Shown here: positions 4,318-38,273 of the stretch, piece after piece | How the letters are laid out: the number at the start of each line of letters is the position of its first letter | How positions within the stretch are numbered: the first letter of the stretch is position 1 | Virus record (IMG/VR): IMGVR_UViG_3300044627_003892 | Length of the DNA: 64,000 nt | DNA from: a virus | Lineage: Duplodnaviria; Caudoviricetes | Reading direction: 5' to 3' (one strand) | Made by a program: the position numbers and the translations under genes | The notes under the pieces: generated by a model | Told to the model about the DNA's origin: nothing | The model's database searches: none | What the model saw: the letters and a program-made list of their open reading frames with translations, nothing else

Positions 4318-7300
4318 TTAGATGTCTTCAAAAGACGCTCCTGTTGGTGTAATTAAGAACTCAATATCAATGAACTCTAATGCTTTAGTTGGTTTGATAT
4401 AAATCTTACCTACTAATTGGTTAGCATCTAAGTCTTCAGGAGTATTTTGTACTGTTACACGGAAGTCATATAAACCTCTGTCTCTTCTAATAGCATCTAA
4501 GATTGGATTAACAGAGTCAAGGAATTGTTGTCTAACTGTATTATCATTTTGTTCAAACAACAATCTGATAGCCACCGCAGAAATCAATTTACGAGCTTGT
4601 AATAACAATCTTCTAACGTTAATTCTGTCTAATGCTGATTCAGCAATTTGAAGAGTTTTGTTACCCCAAATGACAGTTCCAACGTCGTTGAAAGTTGCGA
4701 TTGGGTTAATTCTTCCTTTGTAAAGAGTGTCTCTATCTTCTTGAGTTAATCTCTTTCTAGCTCTAACCGCATTTACAATACCTCTTGTGTAACCCGCAGT
4801 TGCAAACCATGGGAACGCTATGTTATCAGTTAACGCTAAGTTTCTTGTAACTTCAGCAGTTGCTGGAATATAGATTTGAGTGTTATTTACTGTATCACGA
4901 GTAAGAACCCATGGATAGTAAGTTGCTGTGTAGTTAGAGTCAATTCCTGTTTGTTCTAAACTATCAACCGCTTCTTGTGGGTAAATTAAATTATCCATCG
5001 AAGTTGAGTTTTGTAATAGGTTAAAGTCAGGAGTTGTACAAACATAGATTGAATCCGCTCTTTCGTTTGTAATCATATCAATTGCAGATTCAACTAATCC
5101 ACTATTATTAACATAATCAACACCAGGTGTTACAAGAACATTGATGTTTGTTACCTCAGGATTAGCAAAAGTTCTAATACCTAACAAGTATGCGTAATAG
5201 TCGGTGTTTGCGTAATCAATTGTGCCGTCTTCAATAGTGATAATTTTAAATGAACCCCATCCTGTTGATGTTGGATATGGTGCTTGTGGACAAAAACCAG
5301 CTCTAAATTTAGTCTGCCCAAGAGCGTAAGAATCATCATTTGTTCTTCTTTCATCGTAGATATCCCATCCGTCAAAACCACCTTGTACTAAGAAACTAAA
5401 CTTTCTTGAGTATAGGAAGTAATATGGATTAGTTGAATCTGTTGGTTCAGAACTAAATGAACCATCACCAACTTCAAATTGTGTAACACCACTTACCGTT
5501 ACAACAGTTGCCCCACTATCCATGTGGAAACCTTTTGTTGTGTTTGGCCAGTTGTTGTAACTACCTTCTTCACACAAATCACCAACAGGTCTTTGTTTTC
5601 CTTTATAGTCGAAGAAATCTGCGTCAACACCTACTGAAGATGAAATACCTAAATAAGTTCTTCTTTTATTATCACCAGGACTAGTTACTGCATTATCACC
5701 ACCTGTAGAACTACCAAATGGAGGATTCGCAATTACTTCACCAGGGATTGCATAGTGTGTTTTATAGACAGGGAAAGGAGATGTACCATTAGTATAACTT
5801 CTTGTTATAAAACCTTCAAATCCACAAGGAAGAGCGTCTAACGGAGCTTCTTCATTCATTTCTAACATAATATATTTAGAAAGAATTGCGTATTCACCGT
5901 CGATAGAACCTACCTTCTTAGCCACAAAACTGTTATTTGTAGCATCTAATGTACAATTAGTGAATTTCTCAATAACTGATGGGTTAGCATCTGTATCATA
6001 GAAATCTCTAACTATCAAGTCAAATGTTCCATTGTTAAATGAGATATTTGCAATAGAAACCTTAACTTCTCTGTTTGCGGCATTTCCATCAGGAATGGTA
6101 TAAACACGGAATAATTTATAAACTAAATTACCTCTAAGTTCAGAAACAACCCAAGGAGATGAAGGTGTTTGGTATCTCTCTAAATAGAAACCAGTTGTAT
6201 CAGTATTTGTTGAAGTTCTTGCATCACCTAAAGAAATAAAATTATTAGCGTTTAATCCACGAATAAATCCTTGATTATATCCATAATCCAACATTGTTGA
6301 ATATCTTTCTTCAACAAACAAAGGAACTTCAGTTCTGTCTTTAGCGAAATTTGACACACCAAACACACTACTAATATAGTTAGCTTGTGATGTTGCAAAT
6401 GATGTCTCAAAACTAAACGTGTCGTTTTCATAAGTTCTACCTGAAATCAAGAAAGTAGCATAAGGATTTTGACTTATTCCTGAATAACTACCTGTACCAA
6501 TCATTGTTACATCAGAAGTACCTGTCACTTGATATTGTGGTCCGTGTAAGGTTGATGAATATTGAGTAATACCTCTTGAACGTAAAGTTGCAACAACAAG
6601 ATTGTTATATCCTGAATAACTTGTTCCCGAGAATCCGTAATAAAAACCTGATACCGTACCTGTAAATGAGCCTGCAACTCCGTAAGCGGTTCCCGATAAA
6701 GAAGAAACATTTGTGTAATATGAATTACCATAATATGCGTTACCGTTAGCGGGTGGAACAAAATTAGCATAGAACCAAGCGTCATTTGTACCCGAACAAT
6801 AATCAATAGTTGTTGATGTAATACTATTAACACCAAATACATTAGTTGAAGCCGTTAATCCAGCAACAATATTTGCAGTTGCTTGAGTACCTGAAACTGG
6901 ACCAAAATAATAAGCCGAAGTTCCTGATGTACTATTAGTAACTAAAATACTATGTAATTGTGTTTGTAAGTCGCCTAAAATTGTAGATGTTCCACCATCA
7001 AATTGTGTGTAACCATTAGTATAATATGTGTTTCCACTTATTACACTTGGAACCGCTGAGGTAAATTGTACAGATGTTGTTGAAGCAGTTGAACCTGTGA
7101 AATCAATAGAGAAAGATGTTCCTCCTGTTATTCCAACTGTACTGCAATTAACATTTGCAACTGTGGTTATTGACCAAGACGGTCCTGCATCATAACCTGA
7201 TAGACCTAAAATTCTTGTTACATACAATTGGTTAGATTGTTGTAGATATGATTTAGCAATATATGCCGCCTCATATTTTGGGATTTGTGTATTCACAAAT

Positions 7301-7497
7301 TTTTCAGGTAACGTACCTCCAAAATAAGTTTGGAATTCATCATAATTAGTGATGAATATAGGTTCAAATGCGGGACCCTTAAGAGTTTCACCCACAATAC
7401 CTAAAGTAGTTACACCAACACTTTGTGAAACAAAAGATAAATCTCTCTCTGAGGTATAAACACCTGGAGAAACGAATACTTTGTTTGCTGTAGCCAT
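4318..7497 (-). CDS. gp18: Contractile tail sheath protein (T4 gp18-like) with a large Ser/Thr/Gly-rich insertion
   Basis: N-terminal FVSPGVYTSERDLS. C-terminal sheath motifs PWFATAGYTRG, INPIATF, WGNKTL, RINVRRLL, IKPTKALEFI. Confidence 0.95.
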   Translation of the reverse strand: MATANKVFVSPGVYTSERDLSFVSQSVGVTTLGIVGETLKGPAFEPIFITNYDEFQTYFGGTLPEKFVNTQIPKYEAAYIAKSYLQQSNQLYVTRILGLSGYDAGPSWSITTVANVNCSTVGITGGTSFSIDFTGSTASTTSVQFTSAVPSVISGNTYYTNGYTQFDGGTSTILGDLQTQLHSILVTNSTSGTSAYYFGPVSGTQATANIVAGLTASTNVFGVNSITSTTIDYCSGTNDAWFYANFVPPANGNAYYGNSYYTNVSSLSGTAYGVAGSFTGTVSGFYYGFSGTSYSGYNNLVVATLRSRGITQYSSTLHGPQYQVTGTSDVTMIGTGSYSGISQNPYATFLISGRTYENDTFSFETSFATSQANYISSVFGVSNFAKDRTEVPLFVEERYSTMLDYGYNQGFIRGLNANNFISLGDARTSTNTDTTGFYLERYQTPSSPWVVSELRGNLVYKLFRVYTIPDGNAANREVKVSIANISFNNGTFDLIVRDFYDTDANPSVIEKFTNCTLDATNNSFVAKKVGSIDGEYAILSKYIMLEMNEEAPLDALPCGFEGFITRSYTNGTSPFPVYKTHYAIPGEVIANPPFGSSTGGDNAVTSPGDNKRRTYLGISSSVGVDADFFDYKGKQRPVGDLCEEGSYNNWPNTTKGFHMDSGATVVTVSGVTQFEVGDGSFSSEPTDSTNPYYFLYSRKFSFLVQGGFDGWDIYDERRTNDDSYALGQTKFRAGFCPQAPYPTSTGWGSFKIITIEDGTIDYANTDYYAYLLGIRTFANPEVTNINVLVTPGVDYVNNSGLVESAIDMITNERADSIYVCTTPDFNLLQNSTSMDNLIYPQEAVDSLEQTGIDSNYTATYYPWVLTRDTVNNTQIYIPATAEVTRNLALTDNIAFPWFATAGYTRGIVNAVRARKRLTQEDRDTLYKGRINPIATFNDVGTVIWGNKTLQIAESALDRINVRRLLLQARKLISAVAIRLLFEQNDNTVRQQFLDSVNPILDAIRRDRGLYDFRVTVQNTPEDLDANQLVGKIYIKPTKALEFIDIEFLITPTGASFEDI

Positions 7498-22655: not shown

Positions 22656-22679
22656 AAGTCTCCGTTAGGGGACTTTTTT
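22656..22679 (+). terminator. Rho-independent terminator separating the late operon from the glycosylation locus
   Basis: AAGTCTCC-GTTA-GGGGACTT followed by TTTT. Confidence 0.8.
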
Positions 22680-25217: not shown

Positions 25218-26851
25218 TAACAATAGGATATAGTACACGAAATTCTAACCCTGGATTTCAAGAATATTTAAAAAAATCTTCTGGACACCCCAAGGTTCAA
25301 ATTATTGAAAAGGTAAACAATGGTGAAAAAAATCTTTCACAAGTTTATAACGAGATTATATCAGAATCTAATTTTGATATAATTGTATTATGTCATGACG
25401 ATATCTATTTTGACACAAATAATTGGGCATCAAAATTAGTTAAACAATTTGATAAAAATCTTGATTATGGAATATTTGGTATGGCAGGTACAACAGAAAT
25501 GCCTACAAGTGGAATGTGGTGGGAAGATAGGTCAAAGATGTATGGTATAGTAAATCATGAATCTGAAGGTAAAAAATGGGAATCAAAATATTCTGAGTCA
25601 TTAGGAAATGATATTAAAGAAGTAGTTGTTGTTGATGGTGTGTTTATTGCAATTAACAAACAAAAGATTAATTCTAATTTTGACGAAACAGTTAGTGGAT
25701 TTCACATGTACGATGTCAATTTTTGTTTTAAAAATTTTTTAGAAAATGTTAAAATTGGTGTTTTAACTAATATCAGATTAACACATAAATCTATTGGAAT
25801 GACAAATGAAAAGTGGGAAGAAAATAAAAATTTATTTGCTAGGAAATATTCAGAATTTTTACCTAAAAAAGTAAAATTTACTGAACATAGTAAATTAAAT
25901 GTATTAATATCATGTTTATTTTTTCAAAAATTTACAGGTTCTGAGATGTATGTTTTTGAACTTGCTAAAAATTTGGTAAAACAAAATTGTGATGTCACAA
26001 TTGTTGCCTCTGAAACAAATGGTCCATTAGTGTTAATGGCAACTAAATTAGGGATTAAAGTTAAAAATATTAAAGAACCACCTGGATATAAATTAGGTGA
26101 TGGACAATGGGTTGTAATGACACCTGAAGGTCCTAAACCATCAATCCCTAATAATTATTATAAAATTTCAGAAACCCATTTTGATATTATCCATTGTCAA
26201 CATAAACCTATTGTTAATATGATGAATTTGTTATATCCAAATGTTGATAAAATATCAACAATTCATTCTGAAGTAATTGAATTAGAAAATCCTGTTATTC
26301 ATCCGTCAATTAAAAAATATATTGCAATTAGACCTGAGATTAAAGAACATATTATTTCTAATTTTAACATATCTGAAAATATGGTTGACGTTATCTATAA
26401 CCCAATAGATGAAACTAAATTTTTTAATAAAGATTTAAATTCTGAAAATTACGTTCTATTTGTCGGTTCAATTGATTACCTGAGAGAAAAAACTATACGT
26501 GATTTAATTGAGTACACTAAAGAAAATAATAAAGAATTATGGTTAGTCGGTGAAAACAAATCAAATTATCTTTCAGATATAACTAAAAATTCTCATGTTA
26601 AATTTCATGGACCAACATTAGACGTGGATAAATATATTCATAAATGTTCTGAAACCGCAGGAATACTTTTAGGTAGAACTACTATTGAAGGATGGATGTG
26701 TGGTAAAAAAGGATGGATATATGATGTGGATAATATGGGTAACGTAATTAATAAAGAATTATTTGATATTCCTGAGGACACTGATAAATTTAAATCTTTA
26801 AATGTTACTCAAAAAATTAAAAAAAGTTATTTAGATATATTAAATAAATGA
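25214..26851 (+). CDS. Bifunctional glycosyltransferase (GT2-like N-domain + GT-B C-domain)
   Basis: LCHDDI, VVVDGVF and FHMYDV in the N-domain. GSEMYVFELAK and GRTTIEGW in the C-domain. Confidence 0.8.
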   Translation: MITIGYSTRNSNPGFQEYLKKSSGHPKVQIIEKVNNGEKNLSQVYNEIISESNFDIIVLCHDDIYFDTNNWASKLVKQFDKNLDYGIFGMAGTTEMPTSGMWWEDRSKMYGIVNHESEGKKWESKYSESLGNDIKEVVVVDGVFIAINKQKINSNFDETVSGFHMYDVNFCFKNFLENVKIGVLTNIRLTHKSIGMTNEKWEENKNLFARKYSEFLPKKVKFTEHSKLNVLISCLFFQKFTGSEMYVFELAKNLVKQNCDVTIVASETNGPLVLMATKLGIKVKNIKEPPGYKLGDGQWVVMTPEGPKPSIPNNYYKISETHFDIIHCQHKPIVNMMNLLYPNVDKISTIHSEVIELENPVIHPSIKKYIAIRPEIKEHIISNFNISENMVDVIYNPIDETKFFNKDLNSENYVLFVGSIDYLREKTIRDLIEYTKENNKELWLVGENKSNYLSDITKNSHVKFHGPTLDVDKYIHKCSETAGILLGRTTIEGWMCGKKGWIYDVDNMGNVINKELFDIPEDTDKFKSLNVTQKIKKSYLDILNK

Positions 26852-27531
26852 TAGTTGGTAATGGGTTAATTGCTTCAGTTTTTTTAAAAAATGAAGAAAA
26901 TTATAAAGATTATATTATTTTTGCATCAGGTGTTTCCTCATCAAAAGAGACTAAATATGAGGAATTTGAAAGAGAAAAAACTTTATTAAAAAATGTATTA
27001 AAAAAAAATAATGATTTAAAATTAATATATTTCAGTACTATTCTTTCAGATAAAATTGATAATCCTTATTATCAACACAAATTAAATATTGAAAATTATA
27101 TAAAAAAAAATTGTAACAATTATAAAATTTATAGAATACCACAAATTCTAGGTTATAGTGGAAATAATGATAATTTAGTTAATTATTTCGTAAATAAAAT
27201 AAAAAAAAACGAGGAGATTAGTTTATATAAAAATGTTAAAAGGTCAATTTTAGACGTTGAGGATTTAAAAAACATTGTTGATGTAAACATAAAGAGTCCA
27301 AAAAATGAAATATTAAATATATCATCAATTGAAAAAATAAGTGTTGTTAATTTATGTAAAAAAATTGGGGATATCCTTAATATAAAACCAAAAATTAAAA
27401 CTATTATTGTTGATACAAAATTAGATTGGGATACACGAAATAGTAGAAAAATTAATGAAATAATTAATAGTTTAGATTTAATTAAAAAAAATTATACTAA
27501 TAACACATTAATAAAATATATTAAAAAATAA
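26848..27531 (+). CDS. NAD-dependent epimerase/dehydratase-like SDR
   Basis: N-terminal IVGNGLIA, FASGVS and YxxxK (YYQHK). Confidence 0.7.
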   Translation: MIVGNGLIASVFLKNEENYKDYIIFASGVSSSKETKYEEFEREKTLLKNVLKKNNDLKLIYFSTILSDKIDNPYYQHKLNIENYIKKNCNNYKIYRIPQILGYSGNNDNLVNYFVNKIKKNEEISLYKNVKRSILDVEDLKNIVDVNIKSPKNEILNISSIEKISVVNLCKKIGDILNIKPKIKTIIVDTKLDWDTRNSRKINEIINSLDLIKKNYTNNTLIKYIKK

Positions 27532-28250: not shown

Positions 28251-28973
28251 ATGAAAATGTCTAAAAACTTTAATCCAAAAATTTCAGTATGTATTCCCTC
28301 ATACGAGGCAAATGGTAGAGGTGTCGAATTTATTGATAAAAACATCCAATCAATTCTTTCTCAAACCTATAAAAATATAGAAATTATTGTTTCTGACCAT
28401 TCAAAAGATGACTCAATTGAAAATTACATTAAAGAGTTGAAGTTGGATAATATAATATATTTGAGAAATACTGAGTACATCGGGTGGCCGGCACATAACA
28501 CTAACAACGCAATTAAAAACTCTACAGGAGATTATATCAAATTAATGAATTTAGACGACTTTATGGTTGGTAATGATTGCATTAAACTAATGGTTGATTT
28601 ATTAGATGAAGGTAATCAATGGGTTGTCAGTGGATGCATTCACTATGATTATGGTAATGGAAATTGGATAAATCCAATAATTCCAAAAATTGATGGTGAC
28701 GGTAAACATTTAATTAAAGGTATTAATTTTGTTGGGTGTCCAAGTGTAGGTTTAATTCCTCGTAATGAATATTTTGACACCGAAGTTTTATATATGATTG
28801 ATTGCGAACTTTGGTATCGTATGTTTATAACATATGGTTACCCTGGAGTTTTAAAAGATTATAAGATTGCCGTTGGAGTTGGTGACCACACGTTAACAAG
28901 TCAATGGGAGTCAAAATATAATGAGTTACTTTATAAAGATATTGAGTATTGTAATAAAAAATTTTTAATATGA
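28251..28973 (+). CDS. Glycosyltransferase family 2
   Basis: ISVCIPSYE, IIVSDHS, NLDD and DCELW. Confidence 0.85.
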   Translation: MKMSKNFNPKISVCIPSYEANGRGVEFIDKNIQSILSQTYKNIEIIVSDHSKDDSIENYIKELKLDNIIYLRNTEYIGWPAHNTNNAIKNSTGDYIKLMNLDDFMVGNDCIKLMVDLLDEGNQWVVSGCIHYDYGNGNWINPIIPKIDGDGKHLIKGINFVGCPSVGLIPRNEYFDTEVLYMIDCELWYRMFITYGYPGVLKDYKIAVGVGDHTLTSQWESKYNELLYKDIEYCNKKFLI

Positions 28974-30127
28974 AAAATATACAATTGTTTGTTCCAAAAT
29001 TTAGGAACGAAGAAATTTTTGAACACATGTCAACTTGTTTAGATAAAGGTTGGACAGGATTAGGGTTTAAAACTGTTGAGATTGAAAATGAATGGAAAAA
29101 TTATACTGGTTTACCTCACGCTCATTTTATAAACTCAAACACGTCAGGTCTTCATTTAGCGGTAAAAATATTGAAGGATACAAATAAATGGTCAGATGAT
29201 GATGAAATCATCACAAGTCCATTAACATTTGTATCATCAAATCATGCAATAATGTATGAAAATTTAAAACCTATATTTGCAGATATTGATGAGTATTTGT
29301 GTTTAGACCCTGTATCAGTTGAATCAAAAATAACTAAAAAAACAAAAGCGATTTTATTTATTGGTATTGGTGGTAACACTGGTGAACTTTATAAAATTAT
29401 TGATTTATGTAAAAAACATAAATTAAAATTAATTTTAGACGCCGCTCACATGTCGGGTACATTTGCAAAAAATCCATCTACAGGTGAAATTGAGCATGTT
29501 GGTCATGGGGCAGATGTAACTGTATTTAGTTTTCAAGCAGTTAAAAATTTACCAACTGCTGATTCAGGTATGGTTTGTTTTGCAAATGAAGACTACGATA
29601 CTTTAGTTAGAAAACTATCATGGTTAGGTATTGATAAAGACACATACCAAAGAACTAATGATAAAGGCAATTACAAATGGGAATATGATTTAGTTGATGT
29701 CGGTTACAAATACCATGGAAACTCAATGATGGCTTCAATGGCATTAGTTGGTTTAAAATACCTCGACAAAGACAATAATAGAAGACGAGAAATCTGTGAA
29801 AAATACGAAAAAGAGTTAACTAAACACGGGATTCAAACAATAAAGACTCAAAAAGATTGTGTTTTATCGTCAAGACATTTATTTCAAATTGTAGTTAATC
29901 AAAGAAATAAATTTATGGAATTATTAAATTCAAGTGGGATTTATCCGGGGGTTCATTACAGAGATAACACACATTATAAAATGTATAAATACGGACTAGG
30001 AACTTGCCCAAACTCTTTAACTATTTCTGAAAAATTAATAACATTACCTTTACACATGAATTTAACTGAAAATGATATAGAATATATTATAGAAAAGGTT
30101 ATTGAAATAAATAAAAATTTAAATTGA
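28970..30127 (+). CDS. DegT/DnrJ/EryC1/StrS PLP-dependent sugar aminotransferase
   Basis: NSNTSGLHLA, LDAAH, and FSFQAVKNL with the catalytic Lys retained. Confidence 0.9.
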   Translation: MKNIQLFVPKFRNEEIFEHMSTCLDKGWTGLGFKTVEIENEWKNYTGLPHAHFINSNTSGLHLAVKILKDTNKWSDDDEIITSPLTFVSSNHAIMYENLKPIFADIDEYLCLDPVSVESKITKKTKAILFIGIGGNTGELYKIIDLCKKHKLKLILDAAHMSGTFAKNPSTGEIEHVGHGADVTVFSFQAVKNLPTADSGMVCFANEDYDTLVRKLSWLGIDKDTYQRTNDKGNYKWEYDLVDVGYKYHGNSMMASMALVGLKYLDKDNNRRREICEKYEKELTKHGIQTIKTQKDCVLSSRHLFQIVVNQRNKFMELLNSSGIYPGVHYRDNTHYKMYKYGLGTCPNSLTISEKLITLPLHMNLTENDIEYIIEKVIEINKNLN

Positions 30128-30128
30128 T

Positions 30129-30548
30129 ATGTTAATTATTCGTGATTTTAAAAGAGATGACTCAACGTGTGAACTATTAGAAGTACTTAAAGAAGTTTGG
30201 TCAGTAGATGAAATAAGTGAATTAACATTAGACAATTGGTTTAAAAATGATAATTACATGGTAATTGCTGAATTTGACGGTAAAATTATTGGTTCAGCAA
30301 CTTTACATTTACAACAAAAAATTATTCGTAACGGAGGTATTGCTGGTTGTATTGAGGATGTTGTGGTTAAACAATCTTATAGAGGAAATAATATTGGCAC
30401 CCAATTAATACAAGAATTAATTAAAAAAGCCGAAAATCTTGGGTGTTATAAAGTAATACTGTCTTGTTTTCCTGATAGAATAAATTTTTATAAAAAAAAT
30501 GGTTTTTTTGTGGAATCAACCACCATGAGATATAATTTTAAAAAATGA
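30129..30548 (+). CDS. GNAT acetyltransferase, GNA1 (glucosamine-6-P N-acetyltransferase)-like
   Basis: GCIEDVVVKQSYRGNNIG, GCYKVILSC and FYKKNGF. Confidence 0.8.
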   Translation: MLIIRDFKRDDSTCELLEVLKEVWSVDEISELTLDNWFKNDNYMVIAEFDGKIIGSATLHLQQKIIRNGGIAGCIEDVVVKQSYRGNNIGTQLIQELIKKAENLGCYKVILSCFPDRINFYKKNGFFVESTTMRYNFKK

Positions 30549-31272: not shown

Positions 31273-32076
31273 ATGTATACTGTAGAAAAAATATCAAATT
31301 GGGATATTAGAGTTGATATCCAAACAAATAAACCGTGTCAGCTATACGTAGACACGTTTCCGTCATCACCTAAACAATGTTTAAGAGTTCTTTGGTCTGT
31401 TGAACCAAATGAAATTGCAGGATTAAGAGATATTGTAATTAATAGACATAAAGAGTTTGATTTAATATTAACTTGGCACAAAGAAGTATTGGATAATTGT
31501 TCAAACGCCAGATTATTCCCACACGGGATGTCTTGGATTTTAGATTTTGATTTAACAAAAGAAAAAGAATATTGTGTAACCTCTATTGTTGGTGGTAAAA
31601 AGTTAACCCTAAATCATATTGTTAGACAAGAATTACCAACAGTAATAAACCAAGTTACTTCAGTACCATTACATTTATTTAATAGTAAAAATAATCCATA
31701 TAACGGAAAACCTACAATTGATAGATTTATACAAAATAGTGATATAAAAAATGAATTATTTTATTCTCAATATCATATATCTATTGAAAACGTATGTCAA
31801 CCAAATTATTTCAGTGAAAAACTTATTGATTGTTTTCAAACCAATACTATCCCAATTTATTTAGGATGTCCAAACATTGAAAATTTCTTTGATGTTAGAG
31901 GTATGTTTATAGTTAAAACTTTGGATGACATTGTTAATGTTTGTAATTTAATTACACCTGAAACATACAATGAAATGTTACCTTACGTTAAAGAAAATTA
32001 CAAAAGAAGTATCAAATACGCTAAGTTCAGAGAAACATTAAGAGATGAAATAATTGAATTTGTTAAAAATTATTAA
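31273..32076 (+). CDS. GT10-like (alpha-1,3/4-fucosyltransferase family) glycosyltransferase
   Basis: ISIENVCQPNYFSEKLIDCFQTNTIPIYLG matches the GT10 motif (ENS...YxTEK...PIYxG). Confidence 0.75.
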   Translation: MYTVEKISNWDIRVDIQTNKPCQLYVDTFPSSPKQCLRVLWSVEPNEIAGLRDIVINRHKEFDLILTWHKEVLDNCSNARLFPHGMSWILDFDLTKEKEYCVTSIVGGKKLTLNHIVRQELPTVINQVTSVPLHLFNSKNNPYNGKPTIDRFIQNSDIKNELFYSQYHISIENVCQPNYFSEKLIDCFQTNTIPIYLGCPNIENFFDVRGMFIVKTLDDIVNVCNLITPETYNEMLPYVKENYKRSIKYAKFRETLRDEIIEFVKNY

Positions 32077-32082
32077 TTTATT

Positions 32083-32865
32083 ATGAATTTCGTTTCGACA
32101 AAATTAATGGGTGGTTTGGGAAACTATCTATTCCAAATAGCGACAGCGTATTGTCTATGTTTAAGGGACAATAAAGAATTATTATGTGATGTGTCAGATT
32201 CTATAGTACCACATAAACCATATGTATATTATTTATCAAATATTTTCAGAAAAATTAATTTTATTAATGGTTTTAGTAATTTTACACCATTAGGGGAAAA
32301 TGGGTTTTCATACAGTCAATTACCTAAAATTGATGGGAATGTAAAATTGTACGGTTATTTTCAAAGTGAAAAATATTTTATGGATTATAGAAATGAAATA
32401 TTAGAACTTTTTAAAATAGATGATGAAACAAACCAAAAAATAACTGATAAGTATAATGAATTATTAACACTTAATACTTGTTCTATTCATGTTAGACGTG
32501 GTGATTATTTGGGTTTACAAAATTATCATCCAATACAGACTATCGAGTATTATCAAAATGCAATTAAAATTATTGGAGAAGAAAACCATTTTGTAATATT
32601 TTCTGATGATATAAAATGGTGTGAAGAAAACTTTAATTTCCTAAAAAACAAAACATTTATATCAGGTAATACGGATTATGAAGACCTATATTTAATGTCA
32701 ATGTGTAAACATAACATAATAGCCAATTCAACATTTAGTTGGTGGGGTGGATGGTTAAATTGTAATATTGATAAAAAAGTAATAATACCATCTAAATGGT
32801 TTGGGATTTCCAATTCACATTTAAATACTAATGATTTATATTGTAATAAATGGATTAAATTATGA
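32083..32865 (+). CDS. GT11 alpha-1,2-fucosyl/colitosyltransferase
   Basis: GGLGNYLFQ, IHVRRGDY, FSDD and IIANSTFSWWG. Confidence 0.9.
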   Translation: MNFVSTKLMGGLGNYLFQIATAYCLCLRDNKELLCDVSDSIVPHKPYVYYLSNIFRKINFINGFSNFTPLGENGFSYSQLPKIDGNVKLYGYFQSEKYFMDYRNEILELFKIDDETNQKITDKYNELLTLNTCSIHVRRGDYLGLQNYHPIQTIEYYQNAIKIIGEENHFVIFSDDIKWCEENFNFLKNKTFISGNTDYEDLYLMSMCKHNIIANSTFSWWGGWLNCNIDKKVIIPSKWFGISNSHLNTNDLYCNKWIKL

Positions 32866-33782
32866 AAGTATTAGTTACAGGTTCAAATGGATTATTAGGA
32901 CGAGCATTAAAAAAAGTTTTAGGAGATGGTCACGTCTACCATACACGAGAAGATGTTGATTTAACAAATTACGAAGAAACATTCAAGTTCTTTCAAGATA
33001 AAGTTTTAAATGAAGGTGTTGATACTATTATCCATACCGCAGCAAGAGTTGGCGGGGTTAACGCAAACATGAATAATAATCAATTATTTTTTGATGATAA
33101 TTACATTATTAATAGTAATGTAATTAAAGTATGTTCACTTTTAAAAGTTGATAATTTTGTTAATATATTATCTACTTGTATTTTTCCTCATGAAAATATT
33201 GTTTACCCATTAACTTCAGAACAAATTGATAACGGGCCTCCCCACCCGTCAAATTACGGGTATTCATATGCGAAAAGATTATCAGGTTATGAAACACAAA
33301 TTTTTAGAAATGTTTTAAATAAAAATTGGTATTCAGTTGTTCCTACAAATTTATATGGTCCTTATGATAATTTTAATTTAGAGGATAGTCATTTAATACC
33401 TGGTATGATTCATAGAGCGTATTTGGCTAAACAAAATAATGAAAAATTTGTGATTTGGGGAGATGGTTCACCATTGAGACAATTTGTATATTCTGAGGAT
33501 ATGGCAAAATTAATTGTTTGGTCTTTAACTAATTGGGTGTCGGAAAAACATTGTATGATGATTGACGAAACCGAAATTTCAGTTATGGAAGTTGCAAACA
33601 TTATTAGTAAAAAATTTGGGTTTAATGATGACGATTTAATTTTTGACGAAACAAAACCTAAAGGTCAATTTAAAAAACCTGCATCATCAGACATTAAAAA
33701 TTTTAATTTTAAATCAATTGAAGACGGTATTAATGAAACTATTGATTGGTTTATACAAAATTACAAAACTGCCAGAAAATGA
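32862..33782 (+). CDS. fcl: GDP-L-fucose synthase (Fcl) / GDP-colitose synthase (ColC)-like epimerase-reductase
   Basis: VTGSNGLLG, AARVGG, STCIFP, YSYAKR, PTNLYGP and WGDGSPLRQF. Confidence 0.88.
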   Translation: MKVLVTGSNGLLGRALKKVLGDGHVYHTREDVDLTNYEETFKFFQDKVLNEGVDTIIHTAARVGGVNANMNNNQLFFDDNYIINSNVIKVCSLLKVDNFVNILSTCIFPHENIVYPLTSEQIDNGPPHPSNYGYSYAKRLSGYETQIFRNVLNKNWYSVVPTNLYGPYDNFNLEDSHLIPGMIHRAYLAKQNNEKFVIWGDGSPLRQFVYSEDMAKLIVWSLTNWVSEKHCMMIDETEISVMEVANIISKKFGFNDDDLIFDETKPKGQFKKPASSDIKNFNFKSIEDGINETIDWFIQNYKTARK

Positions 33783-34939
33783 AAAAAATAGATTTAATTC
33801 AAGATACAATTGATAACCAAGATATTGATAATCTTATTCAATGGTTAAAAGAATACCCAAGATTAACAAAAGGACCTAAAACGATTGAGTTTGAAAATAA
33901 ATGGTGTGAATGGTTAGGGTCAAAATATTCTGTATTTGTTAATTCAGGGTCATCCGCAAATTTACTTATGTTATATGCTCTTAAAGCTCTTAACATGTTA
34001 AAAAATAATAAAATTTGTGTACCATCATTATGTTGGGCAACAGATTTATCACCTGTACTTCAGTTTGATATGCACCCATTATTAATTGATTGTAATTTAG
34101 ATAACTTGTCAGTTGATTTAAAACATTTGGAAGAAGTGTTCAAACATGAACAACCATCAGTATTAATCTTAGTTTCTGTACTTGGATTATCTCCTGACAT
34201 GGATTCGATTGTTAAGTTATGTAAAAAATATGATGTTATTTTACTTGAAGATAATTGCGAATCTCAAGGAACTAAATTTAAAGGAACTAAACTTGGTAAC
34301 TTTGGTTTGATGTCGTCATTTTCAACGTATTTTGGGCATACTATGTCAACAATTGAGGGTGGTGTTATTACAACAAATAGTGAGGAAATTTATCAGATAT
34401 TATTACAACTTAGAAGTCATGGGTGGGATAGGGATTTACCTGAATCAAAACAAAAAGAATTGAGAAACAAGTGGGAAGTTTCTGATTTTTCATCCCTTTA
34501 TACGTTTTATGTTCCAGGGTTTAATTTAAGGAGTACTGATTTACAAGCTCAACTTGGGATTCAACAATTATTAAAAGTTGATAAAATGATTGATAATAGA
34601 TATAAAAACTTTTTATATTACAAATCTAAGTTAGAAGGTAAAACATGGTTTCCAGTAACTTTTGATGACAGTTATACGTCAAATTTTGCAATACCTTTTA
34701 TCACTAAAACTATTGAAGATAAAAAAAGTTTAATTAAAGAGTTAGAAGAAAATAATATTGCTTGTCGTCCATTAATTTCGGGTTCAATGGGAACACAACC
34801 ATTTTATAAAAAAATATATGGTGAAAATAAACTACCTAATTGTTCAATTATTGATGATAGAGGAGTTTACGTACCAAATCATGATAAAATGACAGTTGAG
34901 GATATTAATAGAATTTGTGACATCTTATTAAAATATTAA
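33779..34939 (+). CDS. ColD-like PLP-dependent GDP-4-keto-6-deoxymannose 3-dehydratase (DegT fold); start corrected to ATG 33779
   Basis: VNSGSSANL and EDNCES. In FSTYFGHTMSTIEGG, His occupies the canonical Lys position, as in ColD/E1. Confidence 0.75.
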   Translation: MKKIDLIQDTIDNQDIDNLIQWLKEYPRLTKGPKTIEFENKWCEWLGSKYSVFVNSGSSANLLMLYALKALNMLKNNKICVPSLCWATDLSPVLQFDMHPLLIDCNLDNLSVDLKHLEEVFKHEQPSVLILVSVLGLSPDMDSIVKLCKKYDVILLEDNCESQGTKFKGTKLGNFGLMSSFSTYFGHTMSTIEGGVITTNSEEIYQILLQLRSHGWDRDLPESKQKELRNKWEVSDFSSLYTFYVPGFNLRSTDLQAQLGIQQLLKVDKMIDNRYKNFLYYKSKLEGKTWFPVTFDDSYTSNFAIPFITKTIEDKKSLIKELEENNIACRPLISGSMGTQPFYKKIYGENKLPNCSIIDDRGVYVPNHDKMTVEDINRICDILLKY

Positions 34940-34953
34940 TAATTAATGTAAAA

Positions 34954-35730
34954 ATGTTAAAATTTTTTAAACCAATAAGAGGTCATAGAGGTTATTTTTC
35001 ATATATGACTGAATCAGTTGTTAACATGCTTAATGTATTGTTAATCTATCCAAATGAAGAATTTAAAGTATATCATGATTTATCAAATATTGATGGGTAT
35101 GGTAGTCATAATATTTATGATGTCTGTTTTATACAAGATAAAAATGATTATTTTTTAAATAAAAATGAGTATTCTAATATTGAGTTAGTAAATAATATAG
35201 CACAATTAAATCCTTATGACAAGGATACATTTACTAAAGAAAAATTAAAAATGTGTGAATCAATAATAAAAGATAATTTTGTATTAAATGATGAAATGAA
35301 ACAATTGTTTTCATCAAGACACCCTCAAATTGATTTTACAAAAACTATAGGTTTTCATAGAAGGGCAACTGATATGTCAATAATACATGGTTTACCAACA
35401 ATAGATTTATCCATAATATTTGAAACATTAGAAAAAGAAGAATTTGAAAATATATTTTTAATGTGTGATAATCTTAATGATTTAATTAAATTTAAACAAA
35501 GATATGGAAATAAATTAATAACTTTTGACGAGTTAACAGCTTCAACAATTGAAAATAAACCATTTTTTAATTTAAAAAATGATGAAGAATTAATTAAAAA
35601 ACATATACAAGAAATTGTTTTTGGAGTATACACTTTAGGTATGACAAAAAAATTAATATGCACTATGTCTAACTTATCAACATTTTCTATTTTTTCAAAC
35701 TCAAATTTAGATTATATAAAATTAAATTAA
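34954..35730 (+). CDS. NodZ/GT23-like GDP-fucose-dependent glycosyltransferase
   Basis: IGFHRRATD (motif I), IFLMCD (motif II) and STFS (motif III). Confidence 0.6.
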   Translation: MLKFFKPIRGHRGYFSYMTESVVNMLNVLLIYPNEEFKVYHDLSNIDGYGSHNIYDVCFIQDKNDYFLNKNEYSNIELVNNIAQLNPYDKDTFTKEKLKMCESIIKDNFVLNDEMKQLFSSRHPQIDFTKTIGFHRRATDMSIIHGLPTIDLSIIFETLEKEEFENIFLMCDNLNDLIKFKQRYGNKLITFDELTASTIENKPFFNLKNDEELIKKHIQEIVFGVYTLGMTKKLICTMSNLSTFSIFSNSNLDYIKLN

Positions 35731-35735
35731 AAAAT

Positions 35736-36551
35736 ATGATTATACAAAATAAATTACCAAAACATTATTGTGAACTTAGTTATATACAACTAATTGAAGA
35801 ACAATTAGTTAAAGAATTTAACAACGACTATAGCCTGTACATTATTCATTCTGATTTAGATGTGATTGAGGGATTAGATTTTGGAGAAAAAATTAAAAAT
35901 GATACAAATTATAAAATAGCCATTCATGTTGGTAACGAGGTATCATATAACCCAAAATATTACGAATTTTTTGATATTATATTTAGATTTTATTTACAAG
36001 AAAAATGTGATTATAATAAAATATTCCCAATTAATATTGGATTTAATTCTAGTGGTGAATATAACATTTTTCCTAATAAGGGTGAAACATTATCTGAAAG
36101 AACTAATGATGTATTTTTTATGGGTAATAAATCAGTTAGATACGGATTTTATAATTCTATAAATAATTTATCTAAAAAATATGATATAAATTTTACAGAT
36201 GGTTTTAGAAGTGGTTTAGTAATCGAAGATTATTACAATAAATTATCAAACTCTAAAATATGTTTAGTTCCTAATGGAATGAGCCCCGAAACTTTTCGTT
36301 ATAGTGAATCTTTAGGGTCAGGATGTATTGTCATAACAAAGGATAAAATTAATTCTTGGTTTTACGAAAATAGCACAGCAATTTTTGTTAATGATTGGTC
36401 TGAAGTTACAGAAGAATTTATTAAAAATATATTATCATCTAATATTGATTTAAAATATGAAGAAAATCTGAATTATTATGAAAGATGTTTAAGTCCTGAT
36501 GCTAATGCCAAATATATTATTAAAACAATAAAAGAAAAAAAAATAAATTAA
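35736..36551 (+). CDS. GT-B glycosyltransferase (exostosin/GT47-like C-terminal motif)
   Basis: VFFMG and LSNSKICLVPNGMSPETFRYSESLGSGCIVI. Confidence 0.55.
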   Translation: MIIQNKLPKHYCELSYIQLIEEQLVKEFNNDYSLYIIHSDLDVIEGLDFGEKIKNDTNYKIAIHVGNEVSYNPKYYEFFDIIFRFYLQEKCDYNKIFPINIGFNSSGEYNIFPNKGETLSERTNDVFFMGNKSVRYGFYNSINNLSKKYDINFTDGFRSGLVIEDYYNKLSNSKICLVPNGMSPETFRYSESLGSGCIVITKDKINSWFYENSTAIFVNDWSEVTEEFIKNILSSNIDLKYEENLNYYERCLSPDANAKYIIKTIKEKKIN

Positions 36552-36552
36552 A

Positions 36553-37533
36553 ATGTCTAATAAAATCGCACTAATAACAGGAATAAATGGTCAAGATGGT
36601 TCGTATTTATCTGAATTTTTGATTAAAAAGGGATATGAAGTTCATGGTACATTAAAACGAAATTCCGTTGCCGAAAACCAAACTTCAAGATTAGATAATA
36701 TATTTAACCAAATTAAATTACATTATGCCGATTTGACAGATTTATCGTCATTAATTTCTGTTATCCAAAAAACAAATCCTGATGAAATTTATAATTTGGC
36801 GGCTCAGTCTCACGTTAGAATTTCATTTGACCAACCAATTTATACCGCAAATGTAACAGGGTTAGGTACTTTAAATTTGTTAGAGGCTGTTAAATTAATA
36901 AAACCTAATACTAAAATTTACCAAGCGTCGTCATCTGAAATGTTTGGTAATTCAATTGATTCTGACGGATACCAAAGAGAAACAACACCTCTTAATCCTG
37001 TTTCTCCATACGGATGTGCTAAAGTATTTAGTTATAACATTTGTCGTAACTACAGAAACTCATACGGTATGTTTATTTCCAACGGTATTTTATTTAACCA
37101 CGAATCACCAAGAAGAGGAACTAACTTTGTGACCAATAAAGTATGTAAAGAAGCGGTTAAAATTAAATTAGGACTATCTAATGAATTAAAATTGGGTAAT
37201 CTTGATGCAACACGAGACTGGGGACATGCGAAAGATTACGTTAGAGCAATGTGGGAAATTTTACAATTAGAAAATCCTGATGATTTTGTTTGTTCGACAG
37301 GTATATCTCATTCAGTTGGTGAACTTTGTGATTATGTATTTTCATCGTTAGGATTGGACTACAAACAATATGTTACTCAAGATGAAAAGTTCCTAAGACC
37401 TGAAGAATTACACGATTTAAAAGGTGATTCATCTAAATTAGTTAATACTACAGGGTGGTCACACGATTACACATTTGAAACGATGTTAGACGAAATGATT
37501 GACTACTGGATGGATTATTATACAATTAAATAA
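36553..37533 (+). CDS. gmd: GDP-mannose 4,6-dehydratase
   Basis: ITGINGQDGSYL, NLAAQSHV, QASSSEMFG, SPYGCAK, NHESPRRG and RDWGHAKDYV. Confidence 0.96.
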   Translation: MSNKIALITGINGQDGSYLSEFLIKKGYEVHGTLKRNSVAENQTSRLDNIFNQIKLHYADLTDLSSLISVIQKTNPDEIYNLAAQSHVRISFDQPIYTANVTGLGTLNLLEAVKLIKPNTKIYQASSSEMFGNSIDSDGYQRETTPLNPVSPYGCAKVFSYNICRNYRNSYGMFISNGILFNHESPRRGTNFVTNKVCKEAVKIKLGLSNELKLGNLDATRDWGHAKDYVRAMWEILQLENPDDFVCSTGISHSVGELCDYVFSSLGLDYKQYVTQDEKFLRPEELHDLKGDSSKLVNTTGWSHDYTFETMLDEMIDYWMDYYTIK

Positions 37534-38273
37534 TGACAAGAAAAAAAACAATTAGCAAAGACGGTCAGTATATTCCTACTGATGCTAAACCAAAAATGTC
37601 TAAGAAAGACCAAATTAGTGGTATGATTAAAAAGAGTAAGGATAAATTCTTAACTCAAAGTCAACGAGAGTATTACGATAAATTAGTTAGAAATCAAATT
37701 ACAATTTGTTCAGGTCCTGCAGGTGTTGGTAAAAGTTTTATAGCGATGAAAGCTGCGGTTGACTTAATTGCTGACCACACATCTCCTTACGAAAAAATTA
37801 TCATTGTTAGACCGGCAGTTGAAGCTGAGGAAAAACTTGGTTCCTTACCTGGTAATGTTGAAGAGAAATTAGACCCCTATATTTTTCCATCGTATTATCT
37901 ATTAAATAAGATTATAGGTAAAGAGGCAAGAGAAAAATTAAAACAAATGGAGGTTATTGAAGTTTTTGCTTTGGCATATATGAGAGGAATGAACATTGAT
38001 AATTCTATTCTAATATTTGAGGAAGCTCAAAATGCTACACCAAAACAAATGAAATTATTATTAACTCGTATTGGTACTGATAGTAAATTTTTTATATCAG
38101 GTGACTTGGAGCAAACTGACAGATATAAAGATAAAAAACATTCAGGTTTATGGGACGCTATTGAGAAATTTAAAAATATCTCTGAAATTGGTGTTCATGA
38201 ATTTGGAGATGATGATGTTGTTAGAAACCCATTGATTACTGAAATCTTAAAAAGATATGAAGATAGGAATTGA
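37533..38273 (+). CDS. phoH: PhoH-family ATPase
   Basis: GPAGVGKS, RPAVEAEEKLGSLPG, YMRG, EEAQN, GDLEQTD and VVRNPLI. Confidence 0.93.
   Translation: MTRKKTISKDGQYIPTDAKPKMSKKDQISGMIKKSKDKFLTQSQREYYDKLVRNQITICSGPAGVGKSFIAMKAAVDLIADHTSPYEKIIIVRPAVEAEEKLGSLPGNVEEKLDPYIFPSYYLLNKIIGKEAREKLKQMEVIEVFALAYMRGMNIDNSILIFEEAQNATPKQMKLLLTRIGTDSKFFISGDLEQTDRYKDKKHSGLWDAIEKFKNISEIGVHEFGDDDVVRNPLITEILKRYEDRN

Follow-up and report, generated by a model that had tools for sequence, protein, structure and literature searches.

Results

A glycan gene cluster in an uncultured lake-water phage

We analysed a stretch of 64,000 nucleotides (hereafter the window) of the IMG/VR virus record IMGVR_UViG_3300044627_003892 (Duplodnaviria; Caudoviricetes), which carries a set of nucleotide-sugar genes resembling the colitose pathway of Escherichia coli. 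Between about 22.7 and 41.7 kb, the window holds a single, tightly packed plus-strand series with many glycosyltransferases (GTs) and nucleotide-sugar enzymes, an 18-kb glycan gene cluster with a GC content of 24–30%. Within this cluster lies a cassette in the order GT10-like, GT11, Fcl-family short-chain dehydrogenase/reductase (SDR), ColD-type dehydratase, GT23-like, variable gene and Gmd (Table 1). A first-pass annotation had described the locus as a complete GDP-L-colitose-type pathway beside a GT11. Gmd, the Fcl-family SDR and the GT11 are indeed present and intact, and the pathway is complete from GDP-mannose onward; neither ManB nor ManC is encoded within the window, so the GDP-mannose itself must be supplied by the host. 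Judged by its genes, the cassette probably makes GDP-L-colitose from host GDP-mannose through Gmd, the ColD-type enzyme and the SDR.

The window is phage DNA, with genes for a tail sheath (4318–7497, minus strand), DNA polymerase, major head protein, portal and large terminase. The large terminase is 25–29% identical to those of Flavobacterium, Microcystis and cyanobacterial myophages and of megaphages, which places all cultured relatives at a distance, and megablast found nothing matching the 5.4-kb region among 50,697 GenBank phages. The 2-kb SDR–ColD stretch is found at ~100% in at least 20 lake-water metagenome runs, and an identical ColD protein is encoded on 85 contigs of up to 306,801 bp. 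The carrier is an uncultured lake-water myophage with a large genome.

Table 1 Genes of the cassette and of a nearby aminotransferase–acetyltransferase pair
Feature	Coordinates	Strand	Profile match or basis
GT10-like (alpha-1,3/4-fucosyltransferase-type), first cassette gene	31273..32076	+	PF00852 24.5 bits (cut-off 23.9)
GT11, candidate alpha-1,2-colitosyl/fucosyl-transferase	32083..32865	+	PF01531 3.7e-29
Fcl/GMER-family extended SDR, proposed GDP-L-colitose synthase, possibly also GDP-fucose synthase	32862..33782	+	
Predicted ColD-type PLP/PMP-dependent GDP-4-keto-6-deoxy-D-mannose 3-dehydratase, catalytic His187	33779..34939	+	
GT23-like (FUT8/NodZ-fold) fucosyltransferase-type enzyme	34954..35730	+	predicted structure; no Pfam match
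Weak GT47/exostosin-like protein, variable slot	35736..36551	+	PF03016 25.8 bits, under 33.4 cut-off
Gmd, GDP-mannose 4,6-dehydratase, first committed step	36553..37533	+	PF16363 3.1e-117
Lys-type DegT aminotransferase (28970–30127) and GNAT acetyltransferase (30129–30548)	28970..30548	+	PF01041 8e-74, PF00583 4e-20

A predicted ColD-type 3-dehydratase

The frame translated from 33746 to 34939 includes FSTYFGHTMSTIEGG, with a His six residues ahead of the Glu of the EGG motif; the start of the gene is the ATG at 33779, since an identical database protein (P0122) has 386 amino acids. The protein belongs to the DegT/aspartate-aminotransferase fold (PF01041, 2.1e-65) and aligns over its full length with the ColD structures. 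In a phmmer search of the PDB, its best matches were the four ColD entries (6.5e-66, 226 bits), while E1 (8.5e-34) and perosamine synthase, PerA (6.5e-29), scored 106 and 122 bits lower, respectively. The same alignment places His187 of the window protein on the catalytic His188 of E. coli ColD. ColD has two adjacent His residues, and the His188 column was fixed by the mutant entries 3b8x (H188N, YSNH) and 2r0t (H188K, YSKH). The Schiff-base position is therefore occupied by His rather than Lys, and the second DegT enzyme of the cluster has Lys in the same alignment column (FSFQAVKNLPTADSG). Both residues had been read correctly in the first-pass annotation, as had the lack of an E1-type Cys-rich insertion. 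A [2Fe-2S] cysteine motif distinguishes E1 and SpnQ from ColD (PMC8987622). In the alignment, two E1-type phage enzymes have the corresponding segment (WWGRxCxCVG...GxCGxRFD), whereas it is missing in the window protein, as it is in E. coli ColD and in the homologues from cyanophages. An E1-type assignment of the gene was rejected on the missing Fe–S motif, and a perosamine-synthase assignment on the absent Lys and the 122-bit lower match to PerA.

Overall identity to the ColD of E. coli O55 is 33% (E 8e-74), the anchor being the O-antigen region of E. coli O55:H7 CB9615, located from metG/gnd synteny; a distant blastn search of the phage ColD gene against E. coli genomes found no match. All 15 ColD signature residues are kept in the window protein (W88, D159, C161, E162, S183, H188, T192, E194, R213, G216, W217, R219, N248, R250 and R331 in E. 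coli numbering). They are invariant in 69 viral homologues and present in 72–77 of 77 cellular His-type homologues, while most of them differ in 18 Lys-type enzymes. D159, E162, R219, N248, R250 and R331 we take, from the Holden-lab structures, to be contacts to pyridoxal 5'-phosphate (PLP) or the GDP-sugar. Against a relative with 87% amino-acid identity, the gene has a dN/dS of 0.09, the lowest in the cassette. We conclude that the gene is predicted to encode a functional ColD-type 3-dehydratase.

Scanning one genome for each prokaryotic species with an alignment-based query yielded 595 ColD-like stretches. Two ColD trees were built, both fast rather than careful: one of 104 rows (IQ-TREE quick mode, LG+G4), and one of 173 rows (FastTree), in which the non-redundant ColD sequences of 80 IMG/VR loci were added to the first set. 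In the 104-row tree, 83 His-type sequences form one clade with E. coli ColD (starred support of 98), its sister being the E1-like His enzymes, and the Lys-type aminotransferases fall outside. The 173-row tree places the window protein in a clade of 73 rows, all of them viral (support 96). One node further out (83), 21 cellular sequences join; going by the 104-row tree, they are the group of Pelagibacterales, Fonsibacter, Flavobacteria and Rhizobiales. A ColD clade of 152 rows (98) holds them all. Placed against ColD, E1 and PerA, the enzyme thus sits inside the ColD clade in both trees, with the E1-like enzymes as sister group, which bears out its earlier description as ColD-like.

Two groups of cellular records deserve mention. 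A 17-kb contig of a Saprospirales metagenome-assembled genome (MAG; L017/L098) and an 8.3-kb contig of a Promethearchaeota MAG (L097) encode GT11, SDR and ColD proteins 62–72% identical to those of the window, far closer than the homologues in the rest of the cellular genomes; both probably come from phages and were binned wrongly. In four SAR11 loci (Pelagibacterales single-amplified genomes and a MAG; L035, L036, L038 and L040, for example L038:3559–9603), the order is nucleotidyltransferase, atypical 4,6-dehydratase (only 115 bits against GDP_Man_Dehyd), Lys-type DegT, His-type ColD homologue, GT2 and RmlC-like cupin, and no Fcl-type SDR was found nearby. What these loci appear to make is a 4-amino-3,4,6-trideoxyhexose, not colitose.

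An Fcl-family reductase as the proposed ColC

The SDR is 31% identical to E. coli ColC (130 bits) and 29% identical to E. coli Fcl (144 bits), and it matches the GDP-fucose synthase model NF047922 with 187 bits, under the 500-bit cut-off. Its S104/C106, Y134/K138 and H177 align with Ser107/Cys109, Tyr136/Lys140 and His179 of E. coli Fcl, columns that we take to be the catalytic set. Residues separating ColC from Fcl were sought and none were found, the catalytic set being common to both. The dN/dS of the gene is 0.29.

In a tree of 123 rows, the SDRs adjacent to ColD genes are polyphyletic within the Fcl family, with at least eight switches forced by starred branches, and ColD appears to have been combined repeatedly with whichever Fcl-type enzyme was at hand. 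When viral sequences were added, 52 of the 55 viral SDRs fell into one clade of 56 rows (support 99). A scan seeded with the SDR found that every viral homologue at least 55% identical to that of the window (11/11) adjoins a His-type ColD and a GT11. Going by these sequences, the SDR represents a virus/eukaryote-type GDP-fucose-synthase lineage, one branch of which appears to have become tied to ColD.

The phage SDR is nearer to eukaryotic and giant-virus GDP-fucose synthases (37–43% identity to enzymes from contigs labelled GVMAG) than to typical bacterial Fcl (~30%, 130–165 bits), an affinity that hints at an unusual evolutionary origin. Two IMG/VR contigs of 8–10 kb with the GVMAG label (L327 and L328) carry an SDR 39% identical to that of the window together with a His-type ColD and Gmd; these are either giant viruses with the cassette or misassigned phage fragments.

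Gmd and three fucosyltransferase-type families

Gmd lies 1.6 kb downstream of the ColD-type gene and is intact; it scores 392 bits against PF16363, and its PDB match is Arabidopsis MUR1 (3.3e-97). Its catalytic motif, ASSSE...YGCAK where E. coli has ASTSE...YAVAK, shows a Thr-to-Ser change and keeps the Glu, Tyr and Lys. Its dN/dS is 0.11, and all cassette genes are under purifying selection.

Three fucosyltransferase-type families, GT10-like, GT11 and GT23-like, surround the sugar enzymes. The GT11 scores 102 bits against its Pfam model (cut-off 23.9) and is 31% identical to WbgN of E. coli O55 (E 4e-40). WbgN and human FUT2, both GT11 enzymes, each accept GDP-colitose and GDP-fucose (PMC11987014), so it is the nucleotide-sugar pool that would decide which sugar is transferred. 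The GT23-like open reading frame (ORF) is conserved in relatives; its sequence has no Pfam match, and GT23 membership is not supported at that level. An AlphaFold2 model built with eight viral homologues (pLDDT 87.6, pTM 0.88) was compared with the PDB by Foldseek, and the top 50 matches were all GDP-fucose GT-B transferases (FUT8, NodZ, POFUT1/2 and AtFUT1; best E 7e-8, TMq 0.62–0.66), the same families being returned by an Atlas feature search. The model thus predicts a GT-B fucosyltransferase fold of the FUT8/NodZ (GT23) type. The slot of the GT47-like gene holds a methyltransferase in a 284-kb relative (L002).

Linkage and spread of the cassette

The GT11 stop overlaps the SDR start, and the SDR stop overlaps the ColD start, both as ATGA, from which the three genes are predicted to be translationally coupled. 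The cassette is not confined to this phage, and at least 594 IMG/VR stretches encode a relative. Neighbours were counted within 5 kb at 80 IMG/VR loci seeded with ColD, and within 3 kb at cellular loci. The catalytic His is kept in 78 of the 80 viral ColD proteins, and the viral loci contain an Fcl-type SDR in 59 cases, Gmd in 60, GT11 in 39 and a GT10-like gene in 33. The commonest viral order is GT10, GT11, SDR, ColD, (GT23-like), Gmd. Among 74 bacterial and archaeal His-ColD loci, 39 have an Fcl-type SDR, 25 Gmd and 9 GT11, and some bacterial ColD genes also have a GT10-like homologue nearby. ColD neighbourhoods are enriched in GT11 genes, which are present at 9/74 of these loci and at none of 75 loci seeded with an Fcl gene that lacks a ColD neighbour.

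Comparison with known systems

The closest functional parallel is the E. coli O55:H7 pathway (Gmd, ColD/WbdK, ColC/WbdJ and the GT11 WbgN), which has the same three enzyme families and a GT11 in one cluster, colC ahead of colD as in the phage with the two genes overlapping by 4 bases, and a ColD that likewise combines the catalytic His and the conserved signature residues with the lack of an Fe–S motif. The phage enzymes are, however, only 31–33% identical to their E. coli counterparts; the phage ColD belongs to a virus-only subclade, and the SDR lies outside the ColC clade. The phage cluster also lacks manB, manC, wzx and wzy, includes additional GT10-like and GT23-like genes, and is carried by a phage rather than an O-antigen locus.

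The GDP-L-fucose cassettes of phages and giant viruses (among them those of cyanophages S-SCSM1 and P-SSM2 and of DSL-LC03) similarly combine Gmd and a virus/eukaryote-type Fcl-family SDR with GT11-, NodZ- or O-FucT-like transferases and are also carried by large aquatic phages, but they have no His-type 3-dehydratase. In the window, ColD directly follows the SDR, and its presence there should turn a pathway to fucose into one to 3-deoxy-fucose (colitose). E1 (RfbH/DdhC) and SpnQ share with the window enzyme the DegT fold and the His in place of the Schiff-base Lys, but they need a Cys-rich [2Fe-2S] segment, absent here, and a reductase partner.

Two cultured Synechococcus phages of the Kyanoviridae, ACG-2014f (NC_047712, L015:6978–10891; ~50 records) and S-CAM7 (NC_031927, L177:4013–7867), have the order Gmd-like, Fcl-like, His-type ColD-like (FSFYFGHHMTT[IV]EGG) and then a glycosyltransferase, which is GT11-like in ACG-2014f. 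Their ColD proteins are 32–35% identical to that of the window and fall into a different ColD subclade, and their SDRs are of the bacterial Fcl type. Their annotation gives the first three genes only as 'nucleotide-sugar epimerase' (twice) and 'aminotransferase', and the loci look like under-annotated colitose cassettes.

The E1/SpnQ type was also encountered in phages. Synechococcus phage RB11-B (PV261925.1, L178:4827–6122) encodes a 432-aa enzyme with His at the Lys position and a Cys-rich Fe–S-like segment, annotated as a DegT aminotransferase only and adjoining RmlC-like, SDR and several fucosyltransferase-type genes; cyanophages therefore carry the Fe–S class of 3-dehydratase as well. Further E1/SpnQ-type genes are present in megaphage LR756502 (L016:16478–17779) and in the marine virus AG-345-D19 (L179).

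Other features of the glycan cluster

A terminator-like hairpin (22656–22675) lies upstream of the first gene of the glycan cluster. Matches to sigma-70-like promoters between 22 and 42 kb (167, against 146.7 +/- 12.3 by chance) were not clearly above expectation. Directly after Gmd, a PhoH-like ATPase gene (37533–38273, plus strand) begins on the last base of the Gmd stop codon, and the Gmd–PhoH order is also kept in L002. An ORF of 227 aa (26848–27531, plus strand) matches the SDR 'Epimerase' model over its C-terminal half alone (profile positions 139–239) and has no recognisable Rossmann N-terminus. Contig L001, which is nearly identical, has it in the same place and with the same length. 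Possible identities are an SDR that is truncated or degenerate, and a substrate-binding module.

Discussion

A proposed route to GDP-L-colitose

The gene content suggests the following route. Host GDP-mannose would be oxidised and dehydrated by Gmd to GDP-4-keto-6-deoxy-D-mannose, from which the His-type enzyme, dependent on PLP and pyridoxamine 5'-phosphate (PMP), would remove the 3-hydroxyl to give GDP-4-keto-3,6-dideoxy-D-mannose, with PMP regenerated from glutamate and no Fe–S reductase partner. This is the chemistry of ColD, which proceeds through a PMP–sugar Schiff base with the His as acid/base and regenerates PMP from glutamate (PMC8987622). In the last step, we infer that the SDR would epimerise C5 and reduce C4 to yield GDP-L-colitose. 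Because colitose is the 3-deoxy form of L-fucose, exactly this product would be expected from an Fcl-type enzyme working on the 3-deoxy intermediate. Any 4-keto-6-deoxymannose escaping the ColD-type enzyme would be turned into GDP-L-fucose by the same SDR, and the three fucosyltransferase-type enzymes would place the resulting 6-deoxy-L-sugars on an acceptor. GDP-L-colitose is the most likely product, possibly alongside GDP-L-fucose, and a mixture of the two sugars on the acceptor is possible. The wording of the first-pass annotation, colitose as well as or instead of fucose, is well chosen, since the SDR cannot be identified as a ColC from its sequence.

As to the acceptor, a hydropathy scan of 22.7–41.7 kb found no protein rich in transmembrane segments or polytopic in the membrane, only one N-terminal hydrophobic segment, and hence no Wzx/Wzy-type export machinery. 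Because the cluster encodes no flippase, polymerase or other polytopic membrane protein, a cytoplasmic acceptor, either phage proteins or a lipid-linked host glycan, is more likely than a self-contained O-antigen unit.

Several observations weigh against a colitose product. The best PDB match of the SDR is human GDP-fucose synthase, FX (1.2e-67, 232 bits; E. coli Fcl 1e-36), and in the 123-row tree it is excluded from the E. coli ColC clade (five rows, starred support of 100). Of the earlier Fcl/ColC label, the Fcl-family part stands, and the ColC part cannot be read from the sequence. Among SDR homologues 35–45% identical to that of the window, many of them from giant-virus MAGs, only 6/68 have a ColD nearby and 40/68 a Gmd. 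The 636-kb megaphage LR756504 (LR756504.1, L260) encodes an SDR 49.5% identical to that of the window, and neither ColD nor Gmd was found anywhere in its genome, the only DegT match being distant (27%, E 5e-13); the SDR lineage is thus not always tied to ColD. Gmd scores 388 bits against TIGR01472, slightly under the equivalog cut-off of 415 bits. Members of the cellular ColD subclade neighbouring the viral one include the SAR11 enzymes, whose partners are a 4,6-dehydratase of another kind and, in place of an Fcl-type SDR, a Lys-type aminotransferase; given these loci, membership of the ColD clade alone is no guarantee of colitose. The viral cassette members, moreover, are known from their genes alone. 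Set against the SDR points is the scatter of ColD partners through the Fcl family, by which the ColC clade does not define the function and likeness to Fcl does not count against a role as ColC. The evidence for that role in the window is the linkage of the genes.

Alternative products

The alternative that survives best gives the Lys-type DegT and the GNAT enzyme, which may be accessory genes of an amino-sugar branch, the main part: the ColD product would be transaminated by the former and N-acetylated by the latter to GDP-4-acetamido-3,4,6-trideoxyhexose, and the SDR would mainly make GDP-fucose. To our knowledge, this trideoxyhexose has not been described as a GDP-sugar. The DegT groups (starred SH-aLRT support of 98) with Lys-type DegTs that lie directly between a 4,6-dehydratase and the His-type ColD homologue in the four SAR11 genomes, where an Fcl-type SDR is missing nearby, and a homologue of it is found within 5 kb of ColD at 9/80 viral loci. 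The SAR11 grouping is deep, however, with long branches; the locus examined around the nearest relative of the DegT (54%, from an Anaerovorax MAG) contains no homologue of the His-type ColD, and the best PDB matches of the window's DegT are ArnB-type UDP-sugar aminotransferases. The DegT and GNAT genes also lie 3.6 kb upstream in a variable part of the cluster, and close relatives such as L002 lack them while retaining the overlapping SDR–ColD pair. We therefore consider this scheme unlikely, though such a branch could operate in this phage alongside colitose synthesis.

A still less probable explanation is that the phage makes fucose only, with an ordinary Gmd and Fcl feeding the GT10, GT11 and GT23 enzymes, and that the His-type enzyme carries little flux, acts on another substrate, or has a regulatory or aminotransferase-like role. 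Classically, the enzymes of the three transferase families are all fucosyltransferases, the SDR is nearest to bona fide GDP-fucose synthases, and phage Gmd–Fcl–GT11 cassettes without ColD do exist (DSL-LC03), such sets having been described as fucose auxiliary metabolic genes (AMGs) (PMC9602691, PMC10611076). Fucose alone is hard to reconcile, however, with ColD being the most conserved gene of the cassette and keeping every signature residue, with its predicted translational coupling to the SDR, and with a virus-specific clade of 73 rows, which implies long-term selection for activity. An active ColD beside Gmd would, moreover, necessarily divert the shared intermediate.

That the His-type enzyme is instead an E1/SpnQ-like 3-dehydratase for a CDP-, dTDP- or UDP-4-keto-6-deoxyhexose of the host, unrelated to the neighbouring Gmd, is very improbable: the JGI pipelines do name close homologues 'CDP-6-deoxy-D-xylo-4-hexulose-3-dehydrase', the best NCBIfam match is RfbH, far under its cut-off, and the SAR11 relatives adjoin a dehydratase that is not a typical Gmd, but the Fe–S motif and the E3-type reductase that E1/SpnQ chemistry needs (PMC8987622) are both lacking, the protein lies in the ColD clade and not in the E1 sister clade, and a canonical Gmd occurs within 5 kb at 60/80 viral loci.

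Possible colitose synthesis in aquatic phages

If the phage does make GDP-L-colitose, the pathway and its chemistry are familiar; what is new is the carrier, which appears to be widespread and has enzyme clades specific to viruses. A rare sugar and an immunodominant one, colitose occurs in a few O-antigens, namely those of E. coli O55 and O111, Salmonella O35, Vibrio cholerae O139 and Yersinia, and we know of it so far only from Gram-negative O-antigens. The first-pass annotation was not aware of such a capacity having been described in phages, and the searchable literature agrees, in that we found there no paper on phage-encoded colitose synthesis (colitose with phage, virus, AMG or cyanophage). 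Under generic names, the genes are nonetheless already on record, both in GenBank cyanophages and in hundreds of contigs of IMG/VR. For phage DSL-LC02, the Dishui Lake paper gives fcl as ORF140 and gmd as ORF142 without discussing the ORF between them. What appears from its genes to be the same cassette has been read, in hundreds of other phage genomes, as a fucose pathway or as plain 'aminotransferase/epimerase' genes.

More tentatively, one may picture a virus-specific, long-maintained 'colitose cassette' that is widespread in aquatic phages and consists of the viral ColD and SDR clades, Gmd and the GT10, GT11 and GT23 enzymes. Many 'GDP-fucose' AMGs of phages would then make a 3,6-dideoxy sugar, used for virion decoration or for recoding of the host surface, and in the phage studied here the Lys-type DegT and GNAT branch would lead from the ColD product to a 4-acetamido-3,4,6-trideoxyhexose. 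We offer this extended picture as a possibility, and a doubtful one.

The viral enzymes could serve the enzymatic synthesis of GDP-colitose. For phage biology, our results suggest that papers on cyanophages and lake phages give an incomplete account where they annotate such AMGs as 'fucose' genes. Two carriers, ACG-2014f and S-CAM7, are in culture on Synechococcus WH7803 and make the role of phage glycan clusters testable, as virion glycosylation or as remodelling of the host surface. A conserved, virus-specific cassette of this kind in hundreds of aquatic phages would extend the known sugar repertoire of phages.

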